A stretch of DNA of 46,941 nucleotides, from the IMG/VR virus record IMGVR_UViG_3300032024_000157, positions 1 through 46,941 of that record, one strand, 5' to 3'. Origin of the DNA: a virus (Duplodnaviria > Caudoviricetes). The position numbers and the translations under genes are program-made. Positions 29,524 through 46,006 of the stretch are shown piece by piece. Numbering within the stretch: the first letter of the stretch is position 1; each line of letters starts with the position of its first letter. The notes below the pieces were generated by a model that did no database searches, had not been told where the DNA came from, and worked only from the letters and a program-made list of their open reading frames with translations.

Positions 29524-32043
29524 TTAACAAGCTCCCCAGGAGCGTCCAAATTTAATGTCGACTGAAATAATCACTTTGATTCCGTGAATAACGAGTTCGT
29601 TGTCGAACCACCGATGCAGGTTTTCGGCAGCAAAGTTATGAAGACGAGTAGGGAACTGCCCGGCAATGGCGTCATGGATTTGAAGGAGGGGTTCCACGAA
29701 GAGGGCGCCCGACTTACGACGGTTAGTCGTGTCGAACCACAGACGTTTGAGAGCAAGGTTTGTTGCATAGGTAGTATTGGCTTGAGGTTCGGACGCGAGT
29801 GCTTGACGAATTATGTCGTCTTCGATGTTGCGGGGGTTGCGGATGCCGAAGAAACGTCGGCGGATGCCAGCAGCGGTTTGAAGGACTCCACCTGTTTCAA
29901 CAAGATGAGTCCGCATCCACTGGCTTCTGGCTGAGATGTTATACCGGAGCATATAAAGGCGTTGATACTTTGCCACCTCAGACGGTGGTACGTCGATAAG
30001 TCCATCGGAGTCCTTAAAAATAGTAGCGGAGATAGTGTCTTCTTTGCCCTCATAGTTTGAGCCGTGTTGGACTCGCTTCATCGAAACGTATTTCCAGTCG
30101 GCGGGTCGACCGTCAGGAAGCATGCCTTTAGGGATGACTACCTTCTCGCATTCGGCCTTGGCGTCCTGACTGCCGAGGCGGGCAATAACGGAGGCGTCTT
30201 GGCCGGCCTCCATGACTTCAAGCATACGGAGTAAAAGGACCGCGGGCTTAACCCCTGCTTTGAGGTCTTCGAGCATGAGAGGGTGACCCAAGGCAGCAAG
30301 GTCAGCGGCGACAGTCCACGCATCAGCCCCTTTAAGGTCGGCTTGGAAGAAGGTGAAATCGTCGCCGTCGGGTATGCAGACATCTCGGAGGGATTTGGTT
30401 ACGTTTTGGAGGTTCGTCCCATCAAACGAGTGACCGACCTTCCCCTTCGCGGTGTAGAAGAGTTCCGCAATGGAAGTTTCGCGACTATTGCTCCGGCCCG
30501 TGACATCCGCCACGAGATTGTAGGCAGTACGCAGTCGCCCATCACTACTTGGAGTAAGCTTTTCAATGTCACTGATTCTTGTGCGAAGGTTAACAGCCCG
30601 AATGAGGTTGAGAAGTACGGAATCTTTACGCTTATTGTAAAAACGGAGCATGACTTCTTCCTTTGTAGTCGTGCCGTAACGCTTGTAGGGGGTGTGGGCC
30701 AGGAAATCATACAGAAGCCATTGTTTGTCCGTGGTGGATTTGGGGTTGAAAGAGTGCCCAAGGATGGGTAGGGTTACTTTGTCAACCGCTTCAATGAGTT
30801 TATTAAGTTCCTGTTCAGCTTCACAACGGTGCGCTGCCGCACGAACGGTGTCAAAACGACAGCCGCGCAAATGTAGGTAAGTGAAACAAGGAATAAGGTT
30901 AACGTTAAACTCATAGTGACTATAAGCCGCAGGATAGCGTCGAAGAACAGGTTCAATGGCGCGGTCCACCTCTTCGGTGCACGCCGAGTCCTTGAAGTTG
31001 TATAAAAGCTTGACATTGGAGTTTTGGGATTCACGGTCGTCTTTATAGTACGGTTCCTCTGTCCACAGGGACGTCGCAACCGCGAGAGATTTTTCGAGTT
31101 CATTGTAAAATTCCCATTGCTTCATCATGGTGTCGGAGATGATTCCGTCCACCACACAAGCGTGGCGCCAACCCAACACTAGAGTTTCATAGAAGGCGTT
31201 GTGACATTTTTTGCCACAGGCCGGGTCTGCGAGCCATGCCGAAAGGGCCGTCCAGACGAGGGCTTCCTCTTCTTCCGACCAGTAGTGGGCACCATCAATA
31301 TAGAACGGGATAACGATTCCACTATGCGGCGTTGGACAGACGGAGAGCATTGTAACACCGATAGCGTCAGAATAGCCCTCGATGTCAAAACTTGCACTTG
31401 CCTGCCGCGAACGGAGGTCTGCAAGAAAGATAAGGACCTCTTGTGCCGTCGGACGAAGGTTGCCAACTCGAACAGCTGGAACAATGCTGACCGTAGTAGA
31501 GTGTCGAACTGCTCTGGCAATGTCTGACCTAAAATAGGCCACGTCGCCAAAGGCACGTTGGATGTAAGCCGGGTGGAAACAGGCGACAGTTTTGTGACCG
31601 GTGCTGCCATGAAAGATACTGCCTCGCCACTCTTGAAGCGGAACGATGTAGCCCGCCGGATTTCCCTTGTTTGGCTTCCCCTGATAGCACTTGTCGGGCT
31701 TGAAGAAACGAAAGGCAGTGCGTCCAAGAGCCAACACACAATTCGGTTGGAACTTGTGTAGGTCTTCTGTAAGCTGCACGATGCCGCCCTGAATTTCCGG
31801 CCCGTGCCAATCAAAGGAGTCGATGTCATTATAAGGTGGATGGTGTTGAGTGATGTTGCCAAGAAAACAAGACTGCGGTAGGATGCCAGAATGCGATAGG
31901 ACCGCACGTAAAAGTTTGCCGCTCGACCCCACAAACGGTTCACCCGCCTGTTCTTCGTCTTGACCAGGGGCTTCGCCGACGACTGCTAGGCGACGACCTT
32001 GTGGGTCGGGGATTGAGGGAAAGAGGTTCGGGACGAGAGGCAT
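29524..32043 (-). CDS. polA: family A DNA polymerase with N-terminal uracil-DNA glycosylase-like domain
   Basis: UDG-4-like VGEAPG, PFVGSSG, HPAY; exonuclease FDIEG, HNAFYE, YNFKD; polymerase TGRSNS, NLQN, ADLKGAD, KRVQHGSNY, QIHDA. Confidence 0.92.
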   Translation of the reverse strand: MPLVPNLFPSIPDPQGRRLAVVGEAPGQDEEQAGEPFVGSSGKLLRAVLSHSGILPQSCFLGNITQHHPPYNDIDSFDWHGPEIQGGIVQLTEDLHKFQPNCVLALGRTAFRFFKPDKCYQGKPNKGNPAGYIVPLQEWRGSIFHGSTGHKTVACFHPAYIQRAFGDVAYFRSDIARAVRHSTTVSIVPAVRVGNLRPTAQEVLIFLADLRSRQASASFDIEGYSDAIGVTMLSVCPTPHSGIVIPFYIDGAHYWSEEEEALVWTALSAWLADPACGKKCHNAFYETLVLGWRHACVVDGIISDTMMKQWEFYNELEKSLAVATSLWTEEPYYKDDRESQNSNVKLLYNFKDSACTEEVDRAIEPVLRRYPAAYSHYEFNVNLIPCFTYLHLRGCRFDTVRAAAHRCEAEQELNKLIEAVDKVTLPILGHSFNPKSTTDKQWLLYDFLAHTPYKRYGTTTKEEVMLRFYNKRKDSVLLNLIRAVNLRTRISDIEKLTPSSDGRLRTAYNLVADVTGRSNSRETSIAELFYTAKGKVGHSFDGTNLQNVTKSLRDVCIPDGDDFTFFQADLKGADAWTVAADLAALGHPLMLEDLKAGVKPAVLLLRMLEVMEAGQDASVIARLGSQDAKAECEKVVIPKGMLPDGRPADWKYVSMKRVQHGSNYEGKEDTISATIFKDSDGLIDVPPSEVAKYQRLYMLRYNISARSQWMRTHLVETGGVLQTAAGIRRRFFGIRNPRNIEDDIIRQALASEPQANTTYATNLALKRLWFDTTNRRKSGALFVEPLLQIHDAIAGQFPTRLHNFAAENLHRWFDNELVIHGIKVIISVDIKFGRSWGAC

Positions 32044-35336: not shown

Positions 35337-36098
35337 TCAGGAACTGACCTTGACGCCCAGCAAGGGAGCAAGGATAGTCCAAATTTCGGTTGGTTTTTTA
35401 TCAGTGGTGTCGATGTTATGAGGAAGCGTGCGAATAGAAGTGCCCAGTGGTGGCCACTGAGAAAGGGGCACGGTGCGAAGACTGTATTTCATTTTCGCAC
35501 CTGGAATTTGTTCTGCTACGCAGCCGATGACGTCGGTGAAGAGACCGCCCAATGTGTCCTTGGCCTGACCGGGCAAGGCCAATGTGTGATGAGTGACCTT
35601 GGTATCATCGTCAGTCCAAGTAGTCTTGTGAACGGTGCAGATGATATACTTTCCAGTCGAACGAAGGTCGAAGATAAGTCCACGGAACATCGTCAAGAGC
35701 TTTCCGTAGTCGGGAATGGTCATGGCTTCAATGGGCTTGCCGGACTTGTCTGTGTCGCCCATCCGTTTATGCTCGGCAATGCACCAAGCACACATGTATT
35801 CAGACAGAATGGTTAGACTGTCAACAATGATTGTATCAATAGTCGGGTCGGCCATTGCAACCTTTAGGTCAGCCAATGCTTGTTTCCAGACCTCGCCGGG
35901 TGTTTTGACTGTCGTGCTTGGCGTGTCGTACTTGATGTTCTTGCCGACAGAGACACGCAAGGCGGAGTCTAGATTGTTGTCGACCTCAAGAAAATACGGA
36001 CGTGGAAATGCAGCGGCGACACAGGTCTTGCCGGACTTTGGATTGCCGACCAAAAGAATGGCTGGGTTGTTAGGTTCAGAAGAAGTAGAGGATTTCAC
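35337..36098 (-). CDS. AAA_24 / Sak4-like ATPase (ssDNA annealing)
   Basis: LLVGNPKSGKT, TIIVDSLT, PDYG, CTVH, LPGQ...FTDV; GTG start overlapping the upstream TGA. Confidence 0.8.
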   Translation of the reverse strand: MKSSTSSEPNNPAILLVGNPKSGKTCVAAAFPRPYFLEVDNNLDSALRVSVGKNIKYDTPSTTVKTPGEVWKQALADLKVAMADPTIDTIIVDSLTILSEYMCAWCIAEHKRMGDTDKSGKPIEAMTIPDYGKLLTMFRGLIFDLRSTGKYIICTVHKTTWTDDDTKVTHHTLALPGQAKDTLGGLFTDVIGCVAEQIPGAKMKYSLRTVPLSQWPPLGTSIRTLPHNIDTTDKKPTEIWTILAPLLGVKVSS

Positions 36099-36520
36099 GG
36101 GGTGGTGTTGGGTTCTGTGCACTTAACGACCATGCGTGTTGCAATGTGTTCAGCTACGGCAGGAACTACATAGCTTTCTTCTACCAGCTTACAAGTACTG
36201 GGAAGAGCGGCATCGTGAGCACGAAGCTCAAAACAGACTCCTTCAACGGTGGCACCATACGTAATGACCGCTTCGCCTTTTGTCTTCAACCACTGCGGAG
36301 AAAGAGTCATAAGCAACTGAAGGTCTTCGCGGTTGTAAACGCTGAACCAGAAGATGCCTGAATAGGCGTTTAGTTCAACAGTGTCTGATAGTTTGTCAAA
36401 AAGATGTTTGACGAGTTGTCTTCCTGTGTGTATTCGTGCAAGGGCAGTGGCATCACTGGTACAGGCTATAAGACCCGACTCCATTGCAAGACGTATGTCG
36501 TTTTCAATTTGTGTGTTCAT
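36095..36520 (-). CDS. hypothetical protein
   Basis: Start MNTQIEND overlapping the upstream stop. Confidence 0.7.
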   Translation of the reverse strand: MNTQIENDIRLAMESGLIACTSDATALARIHTGRQLVKHLFDKLSDTVELNAYSGIFWFSVYNREDLQLLMTLSPQWLKTKGEAVITYGATVEGVCFELRAHDAALPSTCKLVEESYVVPAVAEHIATRMVVKCTEPNTTP

Positions 36521-39354: not shown

Positions 39355-40038
39355 TTACGACGCGTATCCGTCGGCAATCTTTTTCTTTTGAGCAACCTGG
39401 TCGTCCCAGATACCCTTGGCCAGCGCTTCACGCGTGGCCGCAACGTCTTGGCCGGTTTTGGTGTTGAACCGTGCGACCGCATCCTCGACGTTGCCCGCGC
39501 AACGTTCAATGAGCGCGTCAGCAATACCAAAGTAGGTCTTCGGGGTCTTTTTGGGACCGGCCGCCTGACGCTCCTGCTTCTTGGGGTCGAACGGCAGTGC
39601 GTTCAACACAGTTTGCATAAGCGACTGATAGCTCGCAATGGCAGCGTCCACACTGGGGAACTTTCCCTGCTGCACGAGGGTGGCGTATACGCGCTCCTCG
39701 TAGTTGGATTCAGTCTCGTCCCATGCCGTGACTTCTTCCTGTGTGATTTTGCCTTCGGCGTCCTTCACCTCGGGCTTGGTAATCTTCACACGGCGTTCGA
39801 TGCCGGTGAGTTGTTCCAGACCCTCGGTGGCCGGCACGCCGGCCTCCTTGTCCTCTTCCAGCCCGTGCAGGAAGCCGTAGCGTGCTTGGTTCAGCACGGC
39901 ACGATACAGGACGTTCTTGTTGGCCTCGTCTTTAGCCGCACCGTTGCGGCCGGCGAGTCGGTCGAACTCTTCAACCGTCGCTGGAACCTCATAGTTGAGG
40001 TTCTTAAAGCTAAGGCACTTGACTTGGATAGTTTCCAT
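39355..40038 (-). CDS. hypothetical protein (227 aa), probably highly expressed
   Basis: Start METIQV; strongly G/C-ending codons; charged helical protein. Confidence 0.8.
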   Translation of the reverse strand: METIQVKCLSFKNLNYEVPATVEEFDRLAGRNGAAKDEANKNVLYRAVLNQARYGFLHGLEEDKEAGVPATEGLEQLTGIERRVKITKPEVKDAEGKITQEEVTAWDETESNYEERVYATLVQQGKFPSVDAAIASYQSLMQTVLNALPFDPKKQERQAAGPKKTPKTYFGIADALIERCAGNVEDAVARFNTKTGQDVAATREALAKGIWDDQVAQKKKIADGYAS

Positions 40039-40150
40039 ATGTTTGATACAGGATGACGCCCTGCGGTCGCCGGGTGAATTGTGCTGGTGCACTCGGGTCA
40101 CCAGAATGAACAGTTGTTGTTCAAAGTAAGAAAAGCTGTGTAGCCCCTGC

Positions 40151-40414
40151 TTATAGCCTGCCAAGGGCAAGTGCGGTGGCACCAGCTAGGCCGGCCAGGA
40201 CAATGAAAAGTAGAAGGATTCTTAAACGTTGGTAACGGCAATCAAGAACTTCCAATTCGGCCTGGAGCTTACGTGCCCACAGTCCCTTTTGCGTCAATGC
40301 TGATTTATACCAGGCCAGTTCAGTTTCAAGTCGCACAATACGACTAGACGCCGCTGCGGTGACGGCTTCAAGACGACTGAAATTAGAAAAAGGTTTATAT
40401 GGCAGTTTAGTCAT
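40151..40414 (-). CDS. coiled-coil protein with C-terminal transmembrane helix
   Basis: Heptad region followed by ILLLFIVLAGLAGATALAL. Confidence 0.6.
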   Translation of the reverse strand: MTKLPYKPFSNFSRLEAVTAAASSRIVRLETELAWYKSALTQKGLWARKLQAELEVLDCRYQRLRILLLFIVLAGLAGATALALGRL

Positions 40415-40631
40415 GGTTGAGTTGTTTAAACCGGCGATAAATTCGGGGACGGCCGGCAATAGTTTCTTTGTTTCGAGTTGGCTTTTCGAGCCAAAGGTGC
40501 CAAAGAAGGTCTAGGTCTGCGGTAACAAACCGCCAGTAGCTTTGATTGAACGGTTGTTTTGAACGAAAAAACTCGACTGGTGTGTGTCCGGGTAGGCAGC
40601 CCATGATACGAAAGGAGTATGGATTATTCAT
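40407..40631 (-). CDS. hypothetical protein (start 40631 or 40673)
   Basis: MNNPYSF...; overlaps the next start. Confidence 0.5.
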   Translation of the reverse strand: MNNPYSFRIMGCLPGHTPVEFFRSKQPFNQSYWRFVTADLDLLWHLWLEKPTRNKETIAGRPRIYRRFKQLNHD

Positions 40632-40678
40632 GGTCACTTTCGGCTCGCGGTCCCAAAAGACCCGGCGCGGCATTGGTG

Positions 40679-40852
40679 TTATTGGCCAGCAACATCGACG
40701 AGCGTTTCTTCCGCCGTGCAGTGGCCGTCCGATTGCACGTTGCCCTCGTGCCATGTCGCGCCGCCGTCGAGCGAGTATTCGCACGCCCAGTCGCCCCAGT
40801 TACAGTCGTCGATGAGGTCCACGAGTTCCGTGAGGTGTATCTTCGGTTTCAT
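40679..40852 (-). CDS. 57-aa hypothetical protein absent from the ORF track
   Basis: My translation MKPKIHLTELVDLIDDCNWGDWACEYSLDGGATWHEGNVQSDGHCTAEETLVDVAGQ; ATGA overlap with the upstream stop. Confidence 0.6.
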   Translation of the reverse strand: MKPKIHLTELVDLIDDCNWGDWACEYSLDGGATWHEGNVQSDGHCTAEETLVDVAGQ

Positions 40853-41100
40853 AGCACGGTGATCAGAGCTTCGGCGGTGCCGTCGGCGTCATCATCTACA
40901 TAGCTGAGTTCACTGTAGCCTCTTAGACTGTAGCCGATGAGCTGCGCGAATTGCCGACGGTCGTCTGCCGTGAAGTCCATCACGGCGATTTTGCTCATGT
41001 CGATTCCGCCGCTGTCGAACAGGTGGCGGACAATGGCGTTTTCCTTAAAGCAGAGGACGCCCGATTTGTTTCTTTCGAATGGTTGGGTTGGGTGTTTCAT
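40849..41100 (-). CDS. cassette-borne hypothetical protein (83 aa)
   Basis: FKENAIVRHL...DRRQFAQLIGYSLRGYSELSY, a pattern I associate with a common small phage family. Confidence 0.8.
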   Translation of the reverse strand: MKHPTQPFERNKSGVLCFKENAIVRHLFDSGGIDMSKIAVMDFTADDRRQFAQLIGYSLRGYSELSYVDDDADGTAEALITVL

Positions 41101-41114
41101 GTTGGAAATTCAGA

Positions 41115-41174
41115 GGTTAACCAGTGCGATACAGACAACGTCATTCATGGCGTGGCTGATCGGGAACGTTCGGC
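41115..41174 (+). repeat. attC-like site 1 (60 bp)
   Basis: GGTTAAC CAGTGC GAT A CAGACA A CG TCA TTCA TGG CG TGGCTG ATC GGGAAC GTTCGGC. Confidence 0.8.
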
Positions 41175-41398
41175 AGATAAGAAATATCTCCATCGCGCTC
41201 CATGCCTTTTACAAGAGAAACGAATGTTTTGCGCTTGGCGGGAATCCACGGCTTGCCCGTGCGCTGGTCGGAATACCAAGCGACTGGTCTGCCTTTGTGG
41301 GTGCAGGTGCCGTCCGAGTAGAGTAGCCAGTCGAGGTAGTCGTAAAGAGCCGAACCTATCGCCCCAGCCAACGTGCGGGGATGTTCCGTGGTTTTCAT
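41141..41398 (-). CDS. cassette-borne hypothetical protein (85 aa)
   Basis: Starts inside site 2 and stops inside site 1 (...PNVPDQPRHE). Confidence 0.7.
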   Translation of the reverse strand: MKTTEHPRTLAGAIGSALYDYLDWLLYSDGTCTHKGRPVAWYSDQRTGKPWIPAKRKTFVSLVKGMERDGDISYLPNVPDQPRHE

Positions 41399-41461
41399 AT
41401 TTTAGGTGCGCTCAACATCGGGGGCTATTCGCCCGCACGCGGCTGAGCTTTATCGTTCGGG
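41349..41461 (+). repeat. attC-like site 2 (113 bp)
   Basis: GCCGAAC CTATC GCC C CAGCCA A CG TGCGGG ... CCCGCA CG CGGCTG AGC TTTATC GTTCGGG. Confidence 0.85.
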
Positions 41462-41823
41462 GAGATGCGACCGTGCTTGGCGAGCACATCGAGGCCGCAG
41501 TGTTCATAAAAGATTTTGCCGCACTTGGCGCAGGGCCATTGCACGCGCTGCGTGTGCGACGGGTGGTTGCCACACACTACCTCATCCGCCCATTTCTGGC
41601 AGTCCTTCCACGATGCGCCGCGAGGCGGTTCAGGCGGGATGGGAATGTTGGTCAGCGATTGGTCGCCCAGTCGGAACTCATGGCGGCAGGTGGACATCCT
41701 GAATCCCCGAACAAATCCCCGGAGCCAACGACGCGCAGCCGACCGGATGCGGTAGCTTCTCAGTCTGCGCCGCATCTTGGGGTGCATCGTGTAGGCGGGA
41801 GTAATCGGCGCGTCGTTGCTCAT
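41425..41823 (-). CDS. cassette-borne Cys-rich hypothetical protein
   Basis: CRHEF...WPCAKCGK...EHCG; starts inside site 3 and stops inside site 2 (...PNDKAQPRAGE). Confidence 0.7.
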   Translation of the reverse strand: MSNDAPITPAYTMHPKMRRRLRSYRIRSAARRWLRGFVRGFRMSTCRHEFRLGDQSLTNIPIPPEPPRGASWKDCQKWADEVVCGNHPSHTQRVQWPCAKCGKIFYEHCGLDVLAKHGRISPNDKAQPRAGE

Positions 41824-41837
41824 CTCAGGAGTTCTAC
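41706..41837 (+). repeat. attC-like site 3 (132 bp)
   Basis: CCCGAAC AAATC CCC G GAGCCA A CG ACGCG ... CGCGT CG TTGCTC ATC TCAGGA GTTCTAC. Confidence 0.85.
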
Positions 41838-42175
41838 CTACTGACGCTCACTTCCGCTTCGGGGTTTTCTTCGCAGGCGTGAAGATATTTCTCCAGCCAC
41901 GGCAAGAAGTTCTCGTAGAGCCCCCAGCCGTTCGGGCTGTTGTGCTTCTCGAATCGCACCGGGTCGGCCTTCATTTGCGCGATTCCGTTGCGCAGTGGCT
42001 CGATGAGTTGTGCGGCTTTCGTGATGCCGATTTCTTCGGGCCTCCAGCACGCCTCATAGATTCCAGCCTCTTCGGCCATCGCTCCGAGATTGTGCGTGAT
42101 GTTTTGCCCGAAGAGTTCTTGAGTGTGTCCGCACGTCGGGCACTGCGGTTTTGTGAGATATACGTCTAGGCTCAT
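41834..42175 (-). CDS. cassette-borne hypothetical protein (113 aa)
   Basis: MSLDVYL...NITHNLGAMAEEAGIY...NGWGLY, a pattern I associate with a widespread small phage family. Confidence 0.8.
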   Translation of the reverse strand: MSLDVYLTKPQCPTCGHTQELFGQNITHNLGAMAEEAGIYEACWRPEEIGITKAAQLIEPLRNGIAQMKADPVRFEKHNSPNGWGLYENFLPWLEKYLHACEENPEAEVSVSR

Positions 42176-42180
42176 GGTGT

Positions 42181-42621
42181 TTAAGAAAAGGTAGAACCAG
42201 TTGGTCCAGACAACGGCGCGCAAGCGCCGTGTCTGACCGCCGCGTTCGCCTCGGCCCCACGCTGCGAACGTAGGTGGGTCAGGAACTCGGCGGCCTTCGC
42301 TCGTGTTTCCTCCTCCGTCCAGCCTGCGGCTTTGTTGTAGAGGAAGTCGAAGTCCTCATTGAAAGGGTCTTCACTGAGCACGAAGTCCAGTGTATCCCCG
42401 GACACATGGCTGGGGTGGATGTAGAAGTTCACGTCTCCGGTAAGATGGCTGACATGTGCCGCGAGCGAGAAGTGAGTCACGCCAGCAGTGATCATCCGGC
42501 GCATATAGTGCGCCAGGCTTTCACTCTTGGGCCGAGGAGAACCAGCAGTCACAGCAGCAACGCCCGTTGCTGGGCCTTGCGATTCGGTAGGGGCGTCTCC
42601 GCCCGTGGATTGAGTTGTCAT
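42181..42621 (-). CDS. cassette-borne hypothetical protein (146 aa)
   Basis: ATG at 42621 inside site 5; reads through all of site 4 (...ANAAVRHGACAPLSGPTGSTFS). Confidence 0.7.
   Translation of the reverse strand: MTTQSTGGDAPTESQGPATGVAAVTAGSPRPKSESLAHYMRRMITAGVTHFSLAAHVSHLTGDVNFYIHPSHVSGDTLDFVLSEDPFNEDFDFLYNKAAGWTEEETRAKAAEFLTHLRSQRGAEANAAVRHGACAPLSGPTGSTFS
42191..42250 (+). repeat. attC-like site 4 (60 bp, textbook geometry)
   Basis: GTAGAAC CAGTT GGT C CAGACA A CG GCGC GCAA GCGC CG TGTCTG ACC GCCGC GTTCGCC; unpaired C and A on the top strand give extrahelical G and T on the bottom strand. Confidence 0.9.
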
Positions 42622-42674
42622 GGGAAGGGTTTTAGCTGCGCTCGGCCGGGCGTGGCTGACCTGCGTCGTTCTCT
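42536..42674 (+). repeat. attC-like site 5 (139 bp)
   Basis: GGAGAAC CAGCA GTC A CAGCAG CAA CGCCCG ... CGGGCG TGGCTG ACC TGCGTC GTTCTCT; left arm slightly irregular. Confidence 0.75.
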
Positions 42675-42955
42675 TCCGGCCAAGCGGTAGGCGCGGATTT
42701 AGCGTGCCGGCGAAGCTCGGCGGCACAGTGCATGGTGACTTGGTGGCCTCGGTAGTGCTCCACTTCATCGAGCACGTCGCCGCTTTTGCGGAAGCCCGCC
42801 ATCTTGGATTTCAGCCCGGCCGCGAGTTCTTCCAAGACCTCTTGCACGCGTTTCTCAAACAAATCCGGGGCGTGGATGGCGGTGTTTGCCCTGACCTCAT
42901 CACCCAACCGAATAACAACCCTGTCTAATATGGCCTCAAATTCCTCTGCCGTCAT
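42632..42955 (-). pseudogene. probable chimera: N-terminal fragment of a restriction endonuclease fused to an unrelated C-terminus
   Basis: ATGA-coupled to the C5 methyltransferase; MTAEEFEAIL...FEKRVQEVL resembles a type II REase start but no PD-(D/E)XK core follows; ends inside site 5. Confidence 0.45.
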
Positions 42956-43950
42956 ATCAGACAGTCTCTCACTGCCTTCGCGATATGCCAAGCCAAGACC
43001 GGGGGCACGGCGTTCCCAACCTGGCGCTCCGTTTCCCGCAATCCGCCGCTGAATATGAAGTTGTCGGGGAATGACTGGATTCTAGCCGCCTCGCGCATAG
43101 AGATGCGGCGGGGCAGGCGATAATGGAATTGAATGTTGCCGTGGCATTCAGCCCGCATGGTGTCGGCCGGTCTCTCTGCCTTGAGTATCCGGCTTCCTTG
43201 TTCGCTGCTCTTTTCGGCCCGGCTCCAAATATGGTTAATGGCCGGATTTTCCGCCACTTCGGCCAAGTCTTCGAGAGCCTGCTTTGAAGTGACCCATGAC
43301 TCACGTTTCAGAGTGGGCACCGGAGGCTGGAATTTCTTGGTCTTTCCCTTGGTCCCTACGATGAAGACGCGCTCGCGCATTTGCGGCACGCCGTAGTCAG
43401 CGGCCAAATACACCTGAGCGGAGACCGCGTAGCCCAAGCTCCTAAACGCAGCCATGATTTCCTCATAGAAATCCTTGTTCATCGGCATGAGAAGCCCCTT
43501 GACGTTCTCGGCCACAAAAACACGAGGCTCCGTCCGGCGAATGGTTTCGATCATTGCCTTGTAGAGATTGGTCCTAACGCCCTCAGAACCCTTGAGGATG
43601 CCGTTGATCGACACGTCCTGACACGGAAAACCGCCGATGACTACATCGGCGGTTTTAGGTAGCGCGGACAGAACCTCCCAGATGTCGTCACAATTTATTT
43701 TGTGCCCGAAATTGGCCTCATAGGTCTTGCATGCCGCCGGCTTGATGTCGTTCGCCCAATCAATGCGATAGGGAAGCCGGTCATAGGTCTTTCCCAGAAA
43801 CTTGAAACCCCCAAGGAACCCCATGTCCAAGCCTCCGCAGCCGGAGAAAAGCGATACCACAGAAAATTCTTTGGGAATTTTCTTCCGGACCATTTGCGCC
43901 ATCACCTGCCCGAAAGTCGCGGGCAGCGGTTCGATAATCATTTTCGTCAT
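42952..43950 (-). CDS. dcm: DNA (cytosine-5) methyltransferase
   Basis: Motifs I SLFSGCGG, IV GGFPCQD, VI ENVKG, VIII QMRERVF, IX REAARIQSFP, X VGNAVP. Confidence 0.95.
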   Translation of the reverse strand: MTKMIIEPLPATFGQVMAQMVRKKIPKEFSVVSLFSGCGGLDMGFLGGFKFLGKTYDRLPYRIDWANDIKPAACKTYEANFGHKINCDDIWEVLSALPKTADVVIGGFPCQDVSINGILKGSEGVRTNLYKAMIETIRRTEPRVFVAENVKGLLMPMNKDFYEEIMAAFRSLGYAVSAQVYLAADYGVPQMRERVFIVGTKGKTKKFQPPVPTLKRESWVTSKQALEDLAEVAENPAINHIWSRAEKSSEQGSRILKAERPADTMRAECHGNIQFHYRLPRRISMREAARIQSFPDNFIFSGGLRETERQVGNAVPPVLAWHIAKAVRDCLI

Positions 43951-44018
43951 TGGGTGAGTTTCTTGAGGTCTGCAGATTTTCGGGTTGATTGCATTCATTC
44001 GGGGCGGTTACTCCGCGG

Positions 44019-44552
44019 TTAAACATTTCGGGTTGATGGAAACTGGAATCCGGCCGCCTCCAATGAGGCGCACTGAGCATCAAGGCGGGCGATAAGGTCG
44101 ATGCATTTATCCCATGTCCGGCACTCAGAAACGGGATTCGTCATGGCCGCTTCGGCGTCCACAGCGTTCGCCGGGATCCATGATTGTGCGCGCGCCAACA
44201 TCATGCGGCTCTCGTCCAGAAGCGCGACCAGCGCGGAGTGTGAGTTGCAGGCGGATACGATGAAGGCGGCGTTGGCCAGGGCGTGTTTCCGGGCGCGATC
44301 TCCATTGCCTTCGTTCTCCGGGTCGTAACTCGGCATTTCGCACACCGGGCCATGCGGGATATACTCCGCCGCAACATGGGGCCACGCTTGGCCGTCATCA
44401 ACAAGCTGCCACGGCGTCGGCGTGTGCGCCTGAATGGGCGTATTGGGCGTGGGTGCTTTGGTGGCTTTAATCCCGGCAACGATCTGGCGGGCACGCTTGG
44501 AAAGACGGCTCTTTTTCGGGGCCGGGTGATAAGTGGAGTTATGGTTTTTCAT
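44019..44552 (-). CDS. hypothetical phage-type protein (177 aa)
   Basis: HTPTPW...ANAAFIVSACN motif pair. Confidence 0.75.
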   Translation of the reverse strand: MKNHNSTYHPAPKKSRLSKRARQIVAGIKATKAPTPNTPIQAHTPTPWQLVDDGQAWPHVAAEYIPHGPVCEMPSYDPENEGNGDRARKHALANAAFIVSACNSHSALVALLDESRMMLARAQSWIPANAVDAEAAMTNPVSECRTWDKCIDLIARLDAQCASLEAAGFQFPSTRNV

Positions 44553-44562
44553 ACGCCTTAAG

Positions 44563-44610
44563 ACTGCACACTGTGCAGTTGCTTGCAAGAATAAAGTTGC
44601 ACAATGTGCA
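44563..44610. promoter_or_regulatory. two TGCACA-N-TGTGCA palindromes (putative operators) between divergent genes
   Basis: ACTGCACA C TGTGCAGT at 44563-44579 and TGCACA A TGTGCA at 44598-44610 in an AT-richer gap. Confidence 0.65.
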
Positions 44611-44631
44611 GTTTCATTACACTGCTTCCGG

Positions 44632-44826
44632 ATGCACTTCGGAGAGGCATTGAAGCCGTGGTCAGCCACGCGAATAGCCCTGACGCTCGGTTGTCCCGAG
44701 AGAACGGTTTACGCGTGGAAGATGAACGAGCGGCTCCCTCCAGAATGGGTCCAGCGCCTCGTGCTGGAGAGACTGAAGCGCATAAAGCCCGACCATGCTG
44801 AACCTCCCCGGCCTGAACGTAGTTAA
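44632..44826 (+). CDS. small HTH (Cro/Xre-like) protein
   Basis: SATRIALTLGCPERTVYAWK...RLPPEW. Confidence 0.7.
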   Translation: MHFGEALKPWSATRIALTLGCPERTVYAWKMNERLPPEWVQRLVLERLKRIKPDHAEPPRPERS

Positions 44827-45073
44827 CGTAGCCGACCGCCAAGGAGACTATCTCCTTGAGGCCAACGTCAATCAGGAGGTGCCGGTGTGCGAATGCGCCG
44901 ACCCGCACGTGGTGGCCAACGGCCGTAAGCCGCAGGAGTTCGTCGATACCCCGATGCACGGCAAGCGGGTGGACATCGTGGTGAAGCGGCAGCGCTACAA
45001 GTGTCAGGGCTGCGGGCGCACCTACTACGCGGACATCCCGAACATGCACAGCAAGCACCGCATGACCCAGCGC
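44795..45073 (+). pseudogene. truncated ISL3-family transposase (zinc-finger N-terminus only)
   Basis: MLNLPGL...CEC...DTPMHGKRVDIVVKRQRYKCQGCGRTY...HRMTQR; similarity stops there and no DDE domain follows. Confidence 0.8.
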
Positions 45074-45078
45074 AGGCG

Positions 45079-45140
45079 GCCGAACCTGACTTCTGTTTGG
45101 CGGTGCTCATTTCCCGAGTGGCTGATGCGGATTGTTCGGG
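45079..45140 (+). repeat. degenerate attC-like site 6
   Basis: GCCGAAC ... GAG TGGCTG ATG CGGATT GTTCGGG; right arm has the same layout as sites 1 and 5, left arm does not pair. Confidence 0.5.
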
Positions 45141-45350
45141 TTAAGAGTTTGCGCCTTTTCGTGGCGTGGCGCTTGGATGCACCCAATTTCCAAGCCCACC
45201 GCAAAGCGGTCGGCGGAACATGTTCTTGGGTATCAACAATCCTTGGTTAGCCAATATAGTGGCGCGTTCGGCGCACTGTTTGATAGACATGAGTGTCTTC
45301 AAACGAATGGCGATTGGGTGCTTGCGTTTGGGAAGCGTTGTGGTGTTCAC
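45141..45350 (-). CDS. basic hypothetical protein (69 aa)
   Basis: Starts 2 nt after the upstream stop. Confidence 0.5.
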   Translation of the reverse strand: MNTTTLPKRKHPIAIRLKTLMSIKQCAERATILANQGLLIPKNMFRRPLCGGLGNWVHPSATPRKGANS

Positions 45351-45352
45351 AA

Positions 45353-46006
45353 TTAATAATACATCAATGCTTTTGTCTTAACCGAAATTGGCGCCAGTCC
45401 TTTCTTCACTCTCTTGGCGTCCTCCGATGCCCTTTCAGCCTCACGTTCCTTGTCACGGTCAGCCGCGACCTTGAAGAACTCACTGGCCGGCGTGATAACA
45501 GCTTCAATAAGAACATGCTTACGTCGACGTGGATCAACATGCTCCGCCGACCTAATGGTAATTTGCCACAAAATATCCGTGTTGGGAAAGGTCGCGGCGT
45601 GGGTAACTACGACGGTCTTGGTCGGCGTCAGCCCATGACGTTCCCGAAGCGTGTCGCGCTGTCCCGGACTTAACTGATACTGTCGGTCAACAAAGCAATT
45701 TGCTGCCGTCAACACTTCCGGTGCATACTGTCGCTGTTCATTCCATCCAATCGGTGGGTCACCGGGTTGTGCATCTACTGCGTAGATTGGAAACTTAAGA
45801 ATCTGAACAAAGTGCTCTTCAATGCTTGACGGCTTTGGGTTTCGTGCGGCCCACGTAACATCCTGTTCGGTCGGACTGCGTGTGTCAAGAGTCAAAAGCC
45901 AAGCGTTGTGTTCAGACCAAAGAGAAGACGTATCATAACCATACGCTTGAAGCGTATGCAGAGCCGTTTCGACTTGCTCAATGCCGTTGATGCGTGTATT
46001 GCTCAT
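45353..46006 (-). CDS. hypothetical protein (217 aa)
   Basis: ATG at 46006 (MSNTRING) coupled to the upstream stop. Confidence 0.75.
   Translation of the reverse strand: MSNTRINGIEQVETALHTLQAYGYDTSSLWSEHNAWLLTLDTRSPTEQDVTWAARNPKPSSIEEHFVQILKFPIYAVDAQPGDPPIGWNEQRQYAPEVLTAANCFVDRQYQLSPGQRDTLRERHGLTPTKTVVVTHAATFPNTDILWQITIRSAEHVDPRRRKHVLIEAVITPASEFFKVAADRDKEREAERASEDAKRVKKGLAPISVKTKALMYY

Follow-up and report, generated by a model that had tools for sequence, protein, structure and literature searches.

Reversed gene cassettes of a phage attC array read through their sites in a shared frame

In the canonical polarity of integrons, a cassette gene lies on the top strand and attC stands at its 3' end. 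The window analysed here, a stretch of 46,941 nucleotides constituting a virus record estimated to be 98% complete, contains an attC array in which the genes lie on the other strand. How are such genes ended, and what is the unit that moves? An earlier note on this DNA had proposed that each gene takes its C-terminal tail and stop codon from the neighbouring cassette, in one reading frame common to the array. We consider it probable that this is a reversed phage cassette array, cut at G/TT (between the G and the TT) by an integron integrase acting in trans, in which attC serves as a translated junction. With this layout, genes would probably retain a correct end, and their coupling to the following gene, after reshuffling.

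The array and its five sites

Profile and annotation searches, covering 53 chosen ORFs out of the 302 listed, placed terminase, portal and capsid genes on the + strand, and DNA polymerase, primase, ligase, a Sak4-like protein, an exonuclease and methyltransferases on the - strand. The cassette array is located in this - strand early region. The polymerase (29524-32043, -) belongs to family A and has a uracil-DNA-glycosylase-like domain at its N-terminus; a long G-rich run at the contig end (46837-46941) is probably a sequencing or assembly artefact.

Public collections were scanned with a 24-nt right-arm pattern designed from site S1 and from a relative, L001, which yielded 43 viral and 140 genome loci. 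Many genome loci were labelled Verrucomicrobiota, mostly Opitutaceae, and the 80 with flanks were analysed. An attC detector was then composed of arm matrices, trained on 145 strong sites (none from the window), and a pairing score. Shuffled loci (579 kb) gave no site scoring at least 25, as against 366 in the real loci. In the window, exactly five sites were detected, all with their top strand on +, at scores of 30.9-76.0, while the highest score over 20 shuffles of the window was 21.0; for S1 this test is partly circular, as the pattern was built from it, and detection is confined to one attC family. The sites were not resolved by a repeat search of the window, a plain fold scan lacked specificity, and a left-arm pattern search returned one locus only. 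An Rfam scan of positions 40000-46000 gave no match at the gathering score, promoter and terminator counts were at chance level, and a DNA-level search against phages gave no match longer than 83 nt. The five sites are as follows.

41115 to 41174, +: attC site S1 (R'' AAC at 41119, R' GTT at 41168; score 66.9), containing the tail and TGA stop of ORF A
41349 to 41461, +: attC site S2 (AAC at 41353, GTT at 41455; score 76.0), with the ORF B stop and ORF A start in its loop
41706 to 41837, +: attC site S3 (AAC at 41710, GTT at 41831; score 61.6), with the ORF B start in its L' box and an Asn-frame TGA 4 nt ahead of that ATG
42191 to 42250, +: attC site S4 (AAC at 42195, GTT at 42244; score 60.8), a short site, all of which is read by ORF D
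42536 to 42674, +: attC site S5 (AAC at 42540, GTT at 42668; score 30.9, the weakest of the five), with the ORF E stop and ORF D start in its loop

Two further places were left uncounted: a candidate sixth site at 45107-45141, whose right-arm score of 11.6 is no higher than shuffles reach (up to 13.0), and a suspected one near 40870, which gave no score. Within 44795-45141, an ISL3 transposase fragment (+) abuts a possible attC half-site oriented as S1-S5; its score is in the chance range, and an Asn-frame TGA overlaps an ATG at 45110.

All five sites form the imperfect inverted repeat R''-L''...L'-R' with AAC and GTT ends and asymmetric extra bases, S5 weakly. The extra unpaired bases lie in the left arm on +, which makes the - strand the bottom strand. 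Placing the cassette ORFs on the attC bottom strand, as the earlier note did, was therefore correct. DNA folding favoured the bottom strand over the top for S4 only (one of five), and S1 folds weakly, its R box being unpaired in the minimum-energy structure; a passage of PMC5027507 describes the bottom-strand advantage as an average trend and not an absolute rule. An array of at least two same-strand attC within 4 kb, without nearby integrase, is termed CALIN in the sections consulted of 10.1101/030866 and PMC9892861. The window array is thus a CALIN by definition, of non-canonical polarity, and not a complete integron: intI and attI are absent beside it, and present in the relatives G009, G003 and G015. 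The following genes belong to the array or adjoin it.

40849 to 41100, -: ORF F, 83 aa phage protein downstream of S1, matched by 7 phage records
41141 to 41398, -: ORF A, 85 aa, starting in S2 and crossing the S1 crossover
41425 to 41823, -: ORF B, 132 aa, Cys-rich phage protein with attC-encoded leader and tail
41834 to 42175, -: ORF C, 113 aa, phrog_4019, with its own start and its own TAG stop within the cassette body
42181 to 42621, -: ORF D, 146 aa, starting in S5, crossing all of S4 and stopping 5 nt before the ORF C ATG
42632 to 42955, -: ORF E, 107 aa chimera ending in the S5 tail, with no attC upstream

By sequence, ORF list and detector, the starts at 41398 (S2), 41823 (S3) and 42621 (S5) and the stops at 41141 (S1), 41425 (S2) and 42632 (S5) all lie inside attC sites, as had been claimed, and every coordinate of the earlier note checks out. 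ORF F is probably the body of a further cassette; at its end, no left boundary, attC arm or attI-like motif was found. We found no viral relatives of ORF A or ORF D, no match for ORFs A-D in PADLOC or Pfam, and none for ORF E in a plasmid search.

The first ~44 residues of ORF E are the N-terminus of a type II restriction enzyme, joined to a different phage protein, and this chimera may mean that the array is decaying. Across 42632-43998 (-), a type II C5 methyltransferase gene overlaps (ATGA) the restriction-enzyme gene, of which ~44 codons remain, joined to what was once a cassette gene; apparently, the nuclease was lost from this phage while the methyltransferase was retained. In P0023, a similar truncated restriction-enzyme N-terminus is joined to another protein.

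The shared frame and the stop/start junction

Four ORFs cross the crossover and read the conserved AAC as an in-frame Asn, with the tails PNVPDQPR, PNDKAQPR, ANAAVRHG and ENDAGQPR that the earlier note had quoted. The frame across R'' is not uniform, again as described there: ORF B reads the GTT as Val, and ORFs A and D are shifted by one base. As for ORF C, its TAG directly precedes the AAC, which had led to a count of five genes in one frame and a chance of 1 in 81; this figure does not hold, as it includes an ORF that never crosses. The ORF C homologue in L001 (79% identical) stops at TAA/C in another frame, so the TAG is incidental and only four genes count.

The single frame was upheld in a larger set. 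It comprised 53 reversed viral cassettes called with confidence, from 28 loci, in which 35 genes, spread over 24 loci, extend past the crossover. Every one of the 35 reads AAC as Asn, and the result was unchanged with the last 15 nt hidden from the frame caller. For 26 of them, neither of the other frames is closed by an R-box stop, yet these frames are never used. The other 18 stop on or before the R box (six at TAA/C, three at TGA/AC and nine earlier). Some bodies are homologous, so that the 35 genes are not 35 independent draws, and the patterns behind the set were designed on S1 and L001, both of one attC family, which leaves it incompletely independent.

The Asn frame is not unique to the inverted design, since ordinary top-strand cassettes of the same attC family also favour it. 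Read-through of R'' was seen in 13 of 75 canonical bacterial genes and used the Asn frame in 11 of the 13; on the gene strand of canonical sites, 100/133 have an Asn-frame stop at the site end. At this R'' read-through junction of ordinary cassettes, no shuffling takes place. In the canonical Opitutaceae-type attC (L055-L134), the Asn frame is mostly open and its stop lies ~7 nt before the site end (within the last 15 nt in 100/133 sites), forming a built-in translated linker.

These bacterial counts are what one would expect if the shared frame were a passive property of the attC family and compatibility with shuffling a by-product that was never selected. Near-palindromic arms with one conventional open frame per strand could have been inherited from canonical cassettes, and spacer and L box give both strands the same register. 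We nevertheless regard this as unlikely, as the bottom strands of bacterial sites lack the contrast between frames. The first stop falls inside the site in 93, 75 and 104 of 133 bacterial sites (Asn frame first), whereas the corresponding counts for the 53 viral sites are 50, 26 and 32. Viral loops moreover set the stop at their own ATG, and the unused open frames in 26 genes are not accounted for by R-box stops.

The position of the stop relative to the next start was examined in the 32 viral sites with an in-frame ATG. An Asn-frame stop lies within -16 to +1 of the ATG in 26 of them, against 5 and 15 for the other frames; with the L' box ATG set aside, the numbers are 19 against 5 and 6. Starts of the form ATGA create an Asn-frame TGA in 14/23 cases (p = 0.006). 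Fusion of the upstream gene to the next one would result at 1/53 sites in the Asn frame, as compared with 13/53 in each other frame, and the stop is still there at nine out of ten sites where the current neighbour ends early. In the window, the stop-to-start offsets are -4 (S3), -8 (S4), -13 (S5), -29 (S2) and -43 (S1), tight at just three of the five sites (S3, S4, S5). That the attC loop doubles as a stop/start junction is thus borne out by the layout of 26/32 viral sites. The claim that the shared frame keeps shuffled genes translatable stands only in part: tails are short and fusions few, but any frame meets a stop eventually. The gain would rather consist in short tails, avoidance of fusion to the next gene and stop/start coupling. 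According to passages of a review (PMC8876359), translation of the next gene is helped by ORFs translated within attC and by ORF-11, which spans attI1; the portion consulted of PMC11511950 reports that untranslated stretches lower downstream expression and that attC deletion mattered in a minority of cassettes only. A functional coupling step across attC would be in line with the layout.

Borrowed tails and the unit that moves

If a tail is supplied by the neighbour, homologous proteins should diverge directly after the Asn, and this holds for homologues of all four read-through proteins. The only close homologue of ORF A, P0002, shows no difference from it through YLPN and departs from it thereafter, and a second, more distant one has a different end. 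Six homologues of ORF D share an invariant Asn126 and all differ after it; in four of six ORF B homologues, the end consists of an Asn and a tail unlike that of ORF B; the alignment of P0022 with ORF E extends to the Asn. ORF B also has three homologues outside cassettes (L195-L197), with no site detected; their own start lies ~3 codons ahead of the R'' position, and they terminate a few residues beyond that of the Asn (register by eye).

The cassettes of the array, taken from G/TT to G/TT, are the following.

41169 to 41455, no strand assigned: cassette A, mobile unit from the TT of S1 to the G of S2; own ends pair 4/4 in the R box
41456 to 41831, no strand assigned: cassette B; own ends pair 4/4 (read from sequence), breakpoint at 41455
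41832 to 42244, no strand assigned: cassette C; own ends pair 4/4, in-array partner 2/4
42245 to 42668, no strand assigned: cassette D; whole unit in sequencing runs X13 and X9 with other neighbours on both sides; own ends pair 3/4

Cassette D is contained in the X13 contig as 42244-42671 and in the X9 contig as 42252-42671; in X12 and X6 the match begins at 42243 and 42249, respectively. Other attC right arms stand ahead of it in X13, X9 and X12. The match of the X3 contig begins at 41455, the G of S2. Breakpoints at 42243-42252, 41455 and 42670-42672 were thus found in runs of several studies; X1 and X2, from which this DNA may itself derive, were left out as support, and the lone RNA-labelled run among those compared is probably DNA. 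Furthermore, R-box pairing is perfect for the own cassette ends in 37/53 viral cassettes and for the in-array partner in 5/53 (p = 3.8e-7). From breakpoints and own-end pairing it follows that the mobile unit is a normal G/TT-to-G/TT cassette whose gene gets its tail from the neighbour. The earlier statement that each gene borrows tail and stop is therefore right about the borrowing and wrong about "each", 18/53 genes keeping their own stop.

A second exchange point lies at R''. In 31 of 32 homologous site pairs (72-89% identical) the own bodies are unrelated, near-identical attC sites being joined to unrelated bodies at R''. S5 (92% identical in run X5) occurs with body D and also, from 42539, on other bodies in X5, X6 and X12. 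The S3 leader is common to P0011, P0014 and P0015; in P0014 and P0015 this leader of ORF B heads another body, and bodies A and B occur with other leaders. In a family of attC sites (L015, L021, L040, L041, L241), the L' box ATG starts a leader peptide shared by unrelated bodies. This pattern fits a reuse of attC modules on trimmed genes, and rare top-strand exchange could also give rise to it. One attC shared by different genes is normal in chromosomal integrons. High attC similarity is noted in part of PMC9892861.

The same observations (31/32 pairs, S5 on other bodies from 42539, the ORF B leader on another body) would also be expected if the sites were flipped, so that the top strand is recombined at R'', the gene travels with its downstream site and the cassettes are effectively ordinary. 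We hold this to be most improbable, as cassette D travels with S5 and not with S4, leaders are often conserved but no homologue has the same tail, and top strands recombine ~1,000-10,000 times less often, as given in a part of PMC5027507. Alternatively, an integrase may no longer act at all, the array being a fossil or shuffled on its conserved arms by a phage ssDNA-annealing recombinase, for which the Sak4-like gene (35337-36122) is a candidate. The lack of a tyrosine recombinase, the imperfect S1 and S5, the chimeric ORF E and the exchange of site and body at R'' would agree with this. It is very unlikely, however, given that breakpoints fall on the G of GTT or at most 8 nt from it, that the upstream arms differ and offer too little homology, and that own-cassette R-box pairing is kept.

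In the reading that we favour, action of an integrase in trans on reversed cassettes, genes on the bottom strand place each attC ahead of its own gene, and an integron integrase likely cuts at the usual G/TT point. A cassette comprises a body and its own attC, bounded by G/TT. A gene that has lost its stop reads the AA of its own cassette and the C of the neighbour as Asn and gains a short neighbour-encoded tail. Its stop then falls in the loop of the neighbouring site, in most cases overlapping the ATG there or shortly ahead of it. As sites carry a stop in the Asn frame, any cassette may follow any other unfused, and genes with their own stop (TAA/C, TGA/AC or earlier) would be equally compatible. 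The ribosome may be carried through the RNA hairpin onto the next start. Expression would come from the phage early operon and not from a promoter beside attI, with the integrase possibly supplied by a Verrucomicrobiota host or by a related, integrase-encoding phage.

Orientation, integrase and host among related loci

The reversed array is real and recurrent. The strand of each body between two sites was called by a dipeptide coding score. In the first viral set, 54 of 83 cassettes were called confidently (44 bottom, 10 top), and in bacteria 80 of 98 (75 top, 5 bottom). A second pattern gave 65 loci, just 20 of them with a detected site; this set and six further loci provided 14 cassettes in 4 loci, nine of which were confident and all nine bottom. 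Together, 53/63 confident viral cassettes are reversed, against 5/80 in bacteria; counted per locus, reversed cassettes predominate in 25 of 30 viral loci and canonical ones in three, with two ties. The orientation that the earlier note described for one array therefore predominates in these related viral contigs. PHROGs matched 10/43 submitted bottom-strand proteins, all to phage families; these queries were the confident 44 of the first set minus one with a stop 588 nt early. The coding-strand score called cassette B "top", and this call was rejected, since homologues show the - strand ORF B to be the real gene. Two viral arrays are of mixed or canonical polarity: L031, with five confident top-strand genes and weak bottom calls, and L049, with two top and one bottom.

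Profile searches of the window genome (~98% complete) detected no integrase or other tyrosine recombinase, and no attI-like motif was found in it. Near-full-length TIGR02249 matches were present in 3/35 viral records, with G009 above the cut-off and G003 and G015, apparently of the same phage type, below it. IntI-like genes in L208 (1400-2454) and L209 (1400-2451) directly follow reversed arrays on the gene strand, co-transcribed with the cassette genes and behind a short GTT-ended motif that we take to resemble an attI simple site. This motif is absent from the window array. The host may be a member of Verrucomicrobiota, as suggested by the attC family, by P0011 (source name Candidatus Didemnitutus), by L213, which has a near-identical S3 in a genome of the G001 family, and by L063 (labelled Geminisphaera), which has the same sequence as a provirus locus carrying a reversed cassette. 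The TIGR02249 cut-off is exceeded by 55/121 genomes of the G001 family, the likely host family. Several bacterial genomes have matches of intermediate score like those of L208/L209, possibly prophage copies. As stated in a section of PMC5371416, a bottom strand on the lagging-strand template raises excision; we can only speculate that replication co-orientation would place the bottom strand there.

More tentatively, phages might run a cassette factory of their own, in which attC modules are combined with trimmed phage genes under the shared frame, using a phage IntI and attI. Each module would give start, leader, tail and stop, with IntI and attI at the far end of the early operon. If this were true, we would be dealing with a viral integron in mirror image, where the birth of cassettes could be observed. 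The way in which cassettes arise is called "largely unknown" in a passage of PMC5371416; free and captured ORF B, near-identical attC on unrelated bodies and the provirus genome L063 make cassette genesis testable.

Comparison with known systems

Cassette polarity has been treated as near-fixed in integrons, and cassettes are viewed as a bacterial resource that includes anti-phage genes. In the loci described here, phages maintain a separate, reversed pool of their own genes with the same attC family as their likely hosts, and independent cassettes follow a common reading-frame convention. In annotation, small phage proteins may thus be expected to bear leaders and tails derived from attC, and such arrays will be missed by pipelines in which genes and attC must not overlap. 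A literature search, with subscription journals mostly uncovered, found no account of bottom-strand cassette arrays with a shared frame.

The cassettes of Verrucomicrobiota (Opitutaceae) have the same arm consensus, R/L box layout, Asn-frame read-through and stop near the next start. However, 75/80 of their genes are on the top strand and the read-through stays within one cassette, whereas here it crosses the crossover and depends on the neighbour. In attI1 ORF-11 and short ORFs of attC, as described in parts of PMC8876359, the frame likewise runs over the crossover, ends at a stop supplied by the incoming cassette and helps translation of the next gene; ORF-11 is a short top-strand leader peptide, while here cargo proteins are read on the bottom strand through attC junctions. 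Integrons with an inverted integrase (Treponema and others, in the portion consulted of 10.1101/030866) have intI co-directional with the cassette genes, as do L208/L209. In the Treponema type it is intI that is inverted relative to attC, while in L208/L209 the position of intI is the usual one and the cassette genes are inverted.

A further likeness is offered by phage CALINs (Qi et al. 2023, PMC9892861), which, going by sections of that paper, are integrase-less attC arrays with small genes and methyltransferases, as here, occur in lytic-type phages and have sites that recombined with attI1. The bottom-strand oligos listed there for the TJE1 CALIN are antisense to the genes, which places these genes on the top strand and not on the bottom strand as here. 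The text of the paper, as far as consulted, mentions no bottom-strand genes, loop starts or shared frame, while its figures or annotation could show reversed genes in other CALINs. A 47%-identical ORF C homologue stands immediately before the canonical TJE1 CALIN (L003 8001-8351, L004 1-1560), so that both polarities exist in phages and draw on the same gene families.
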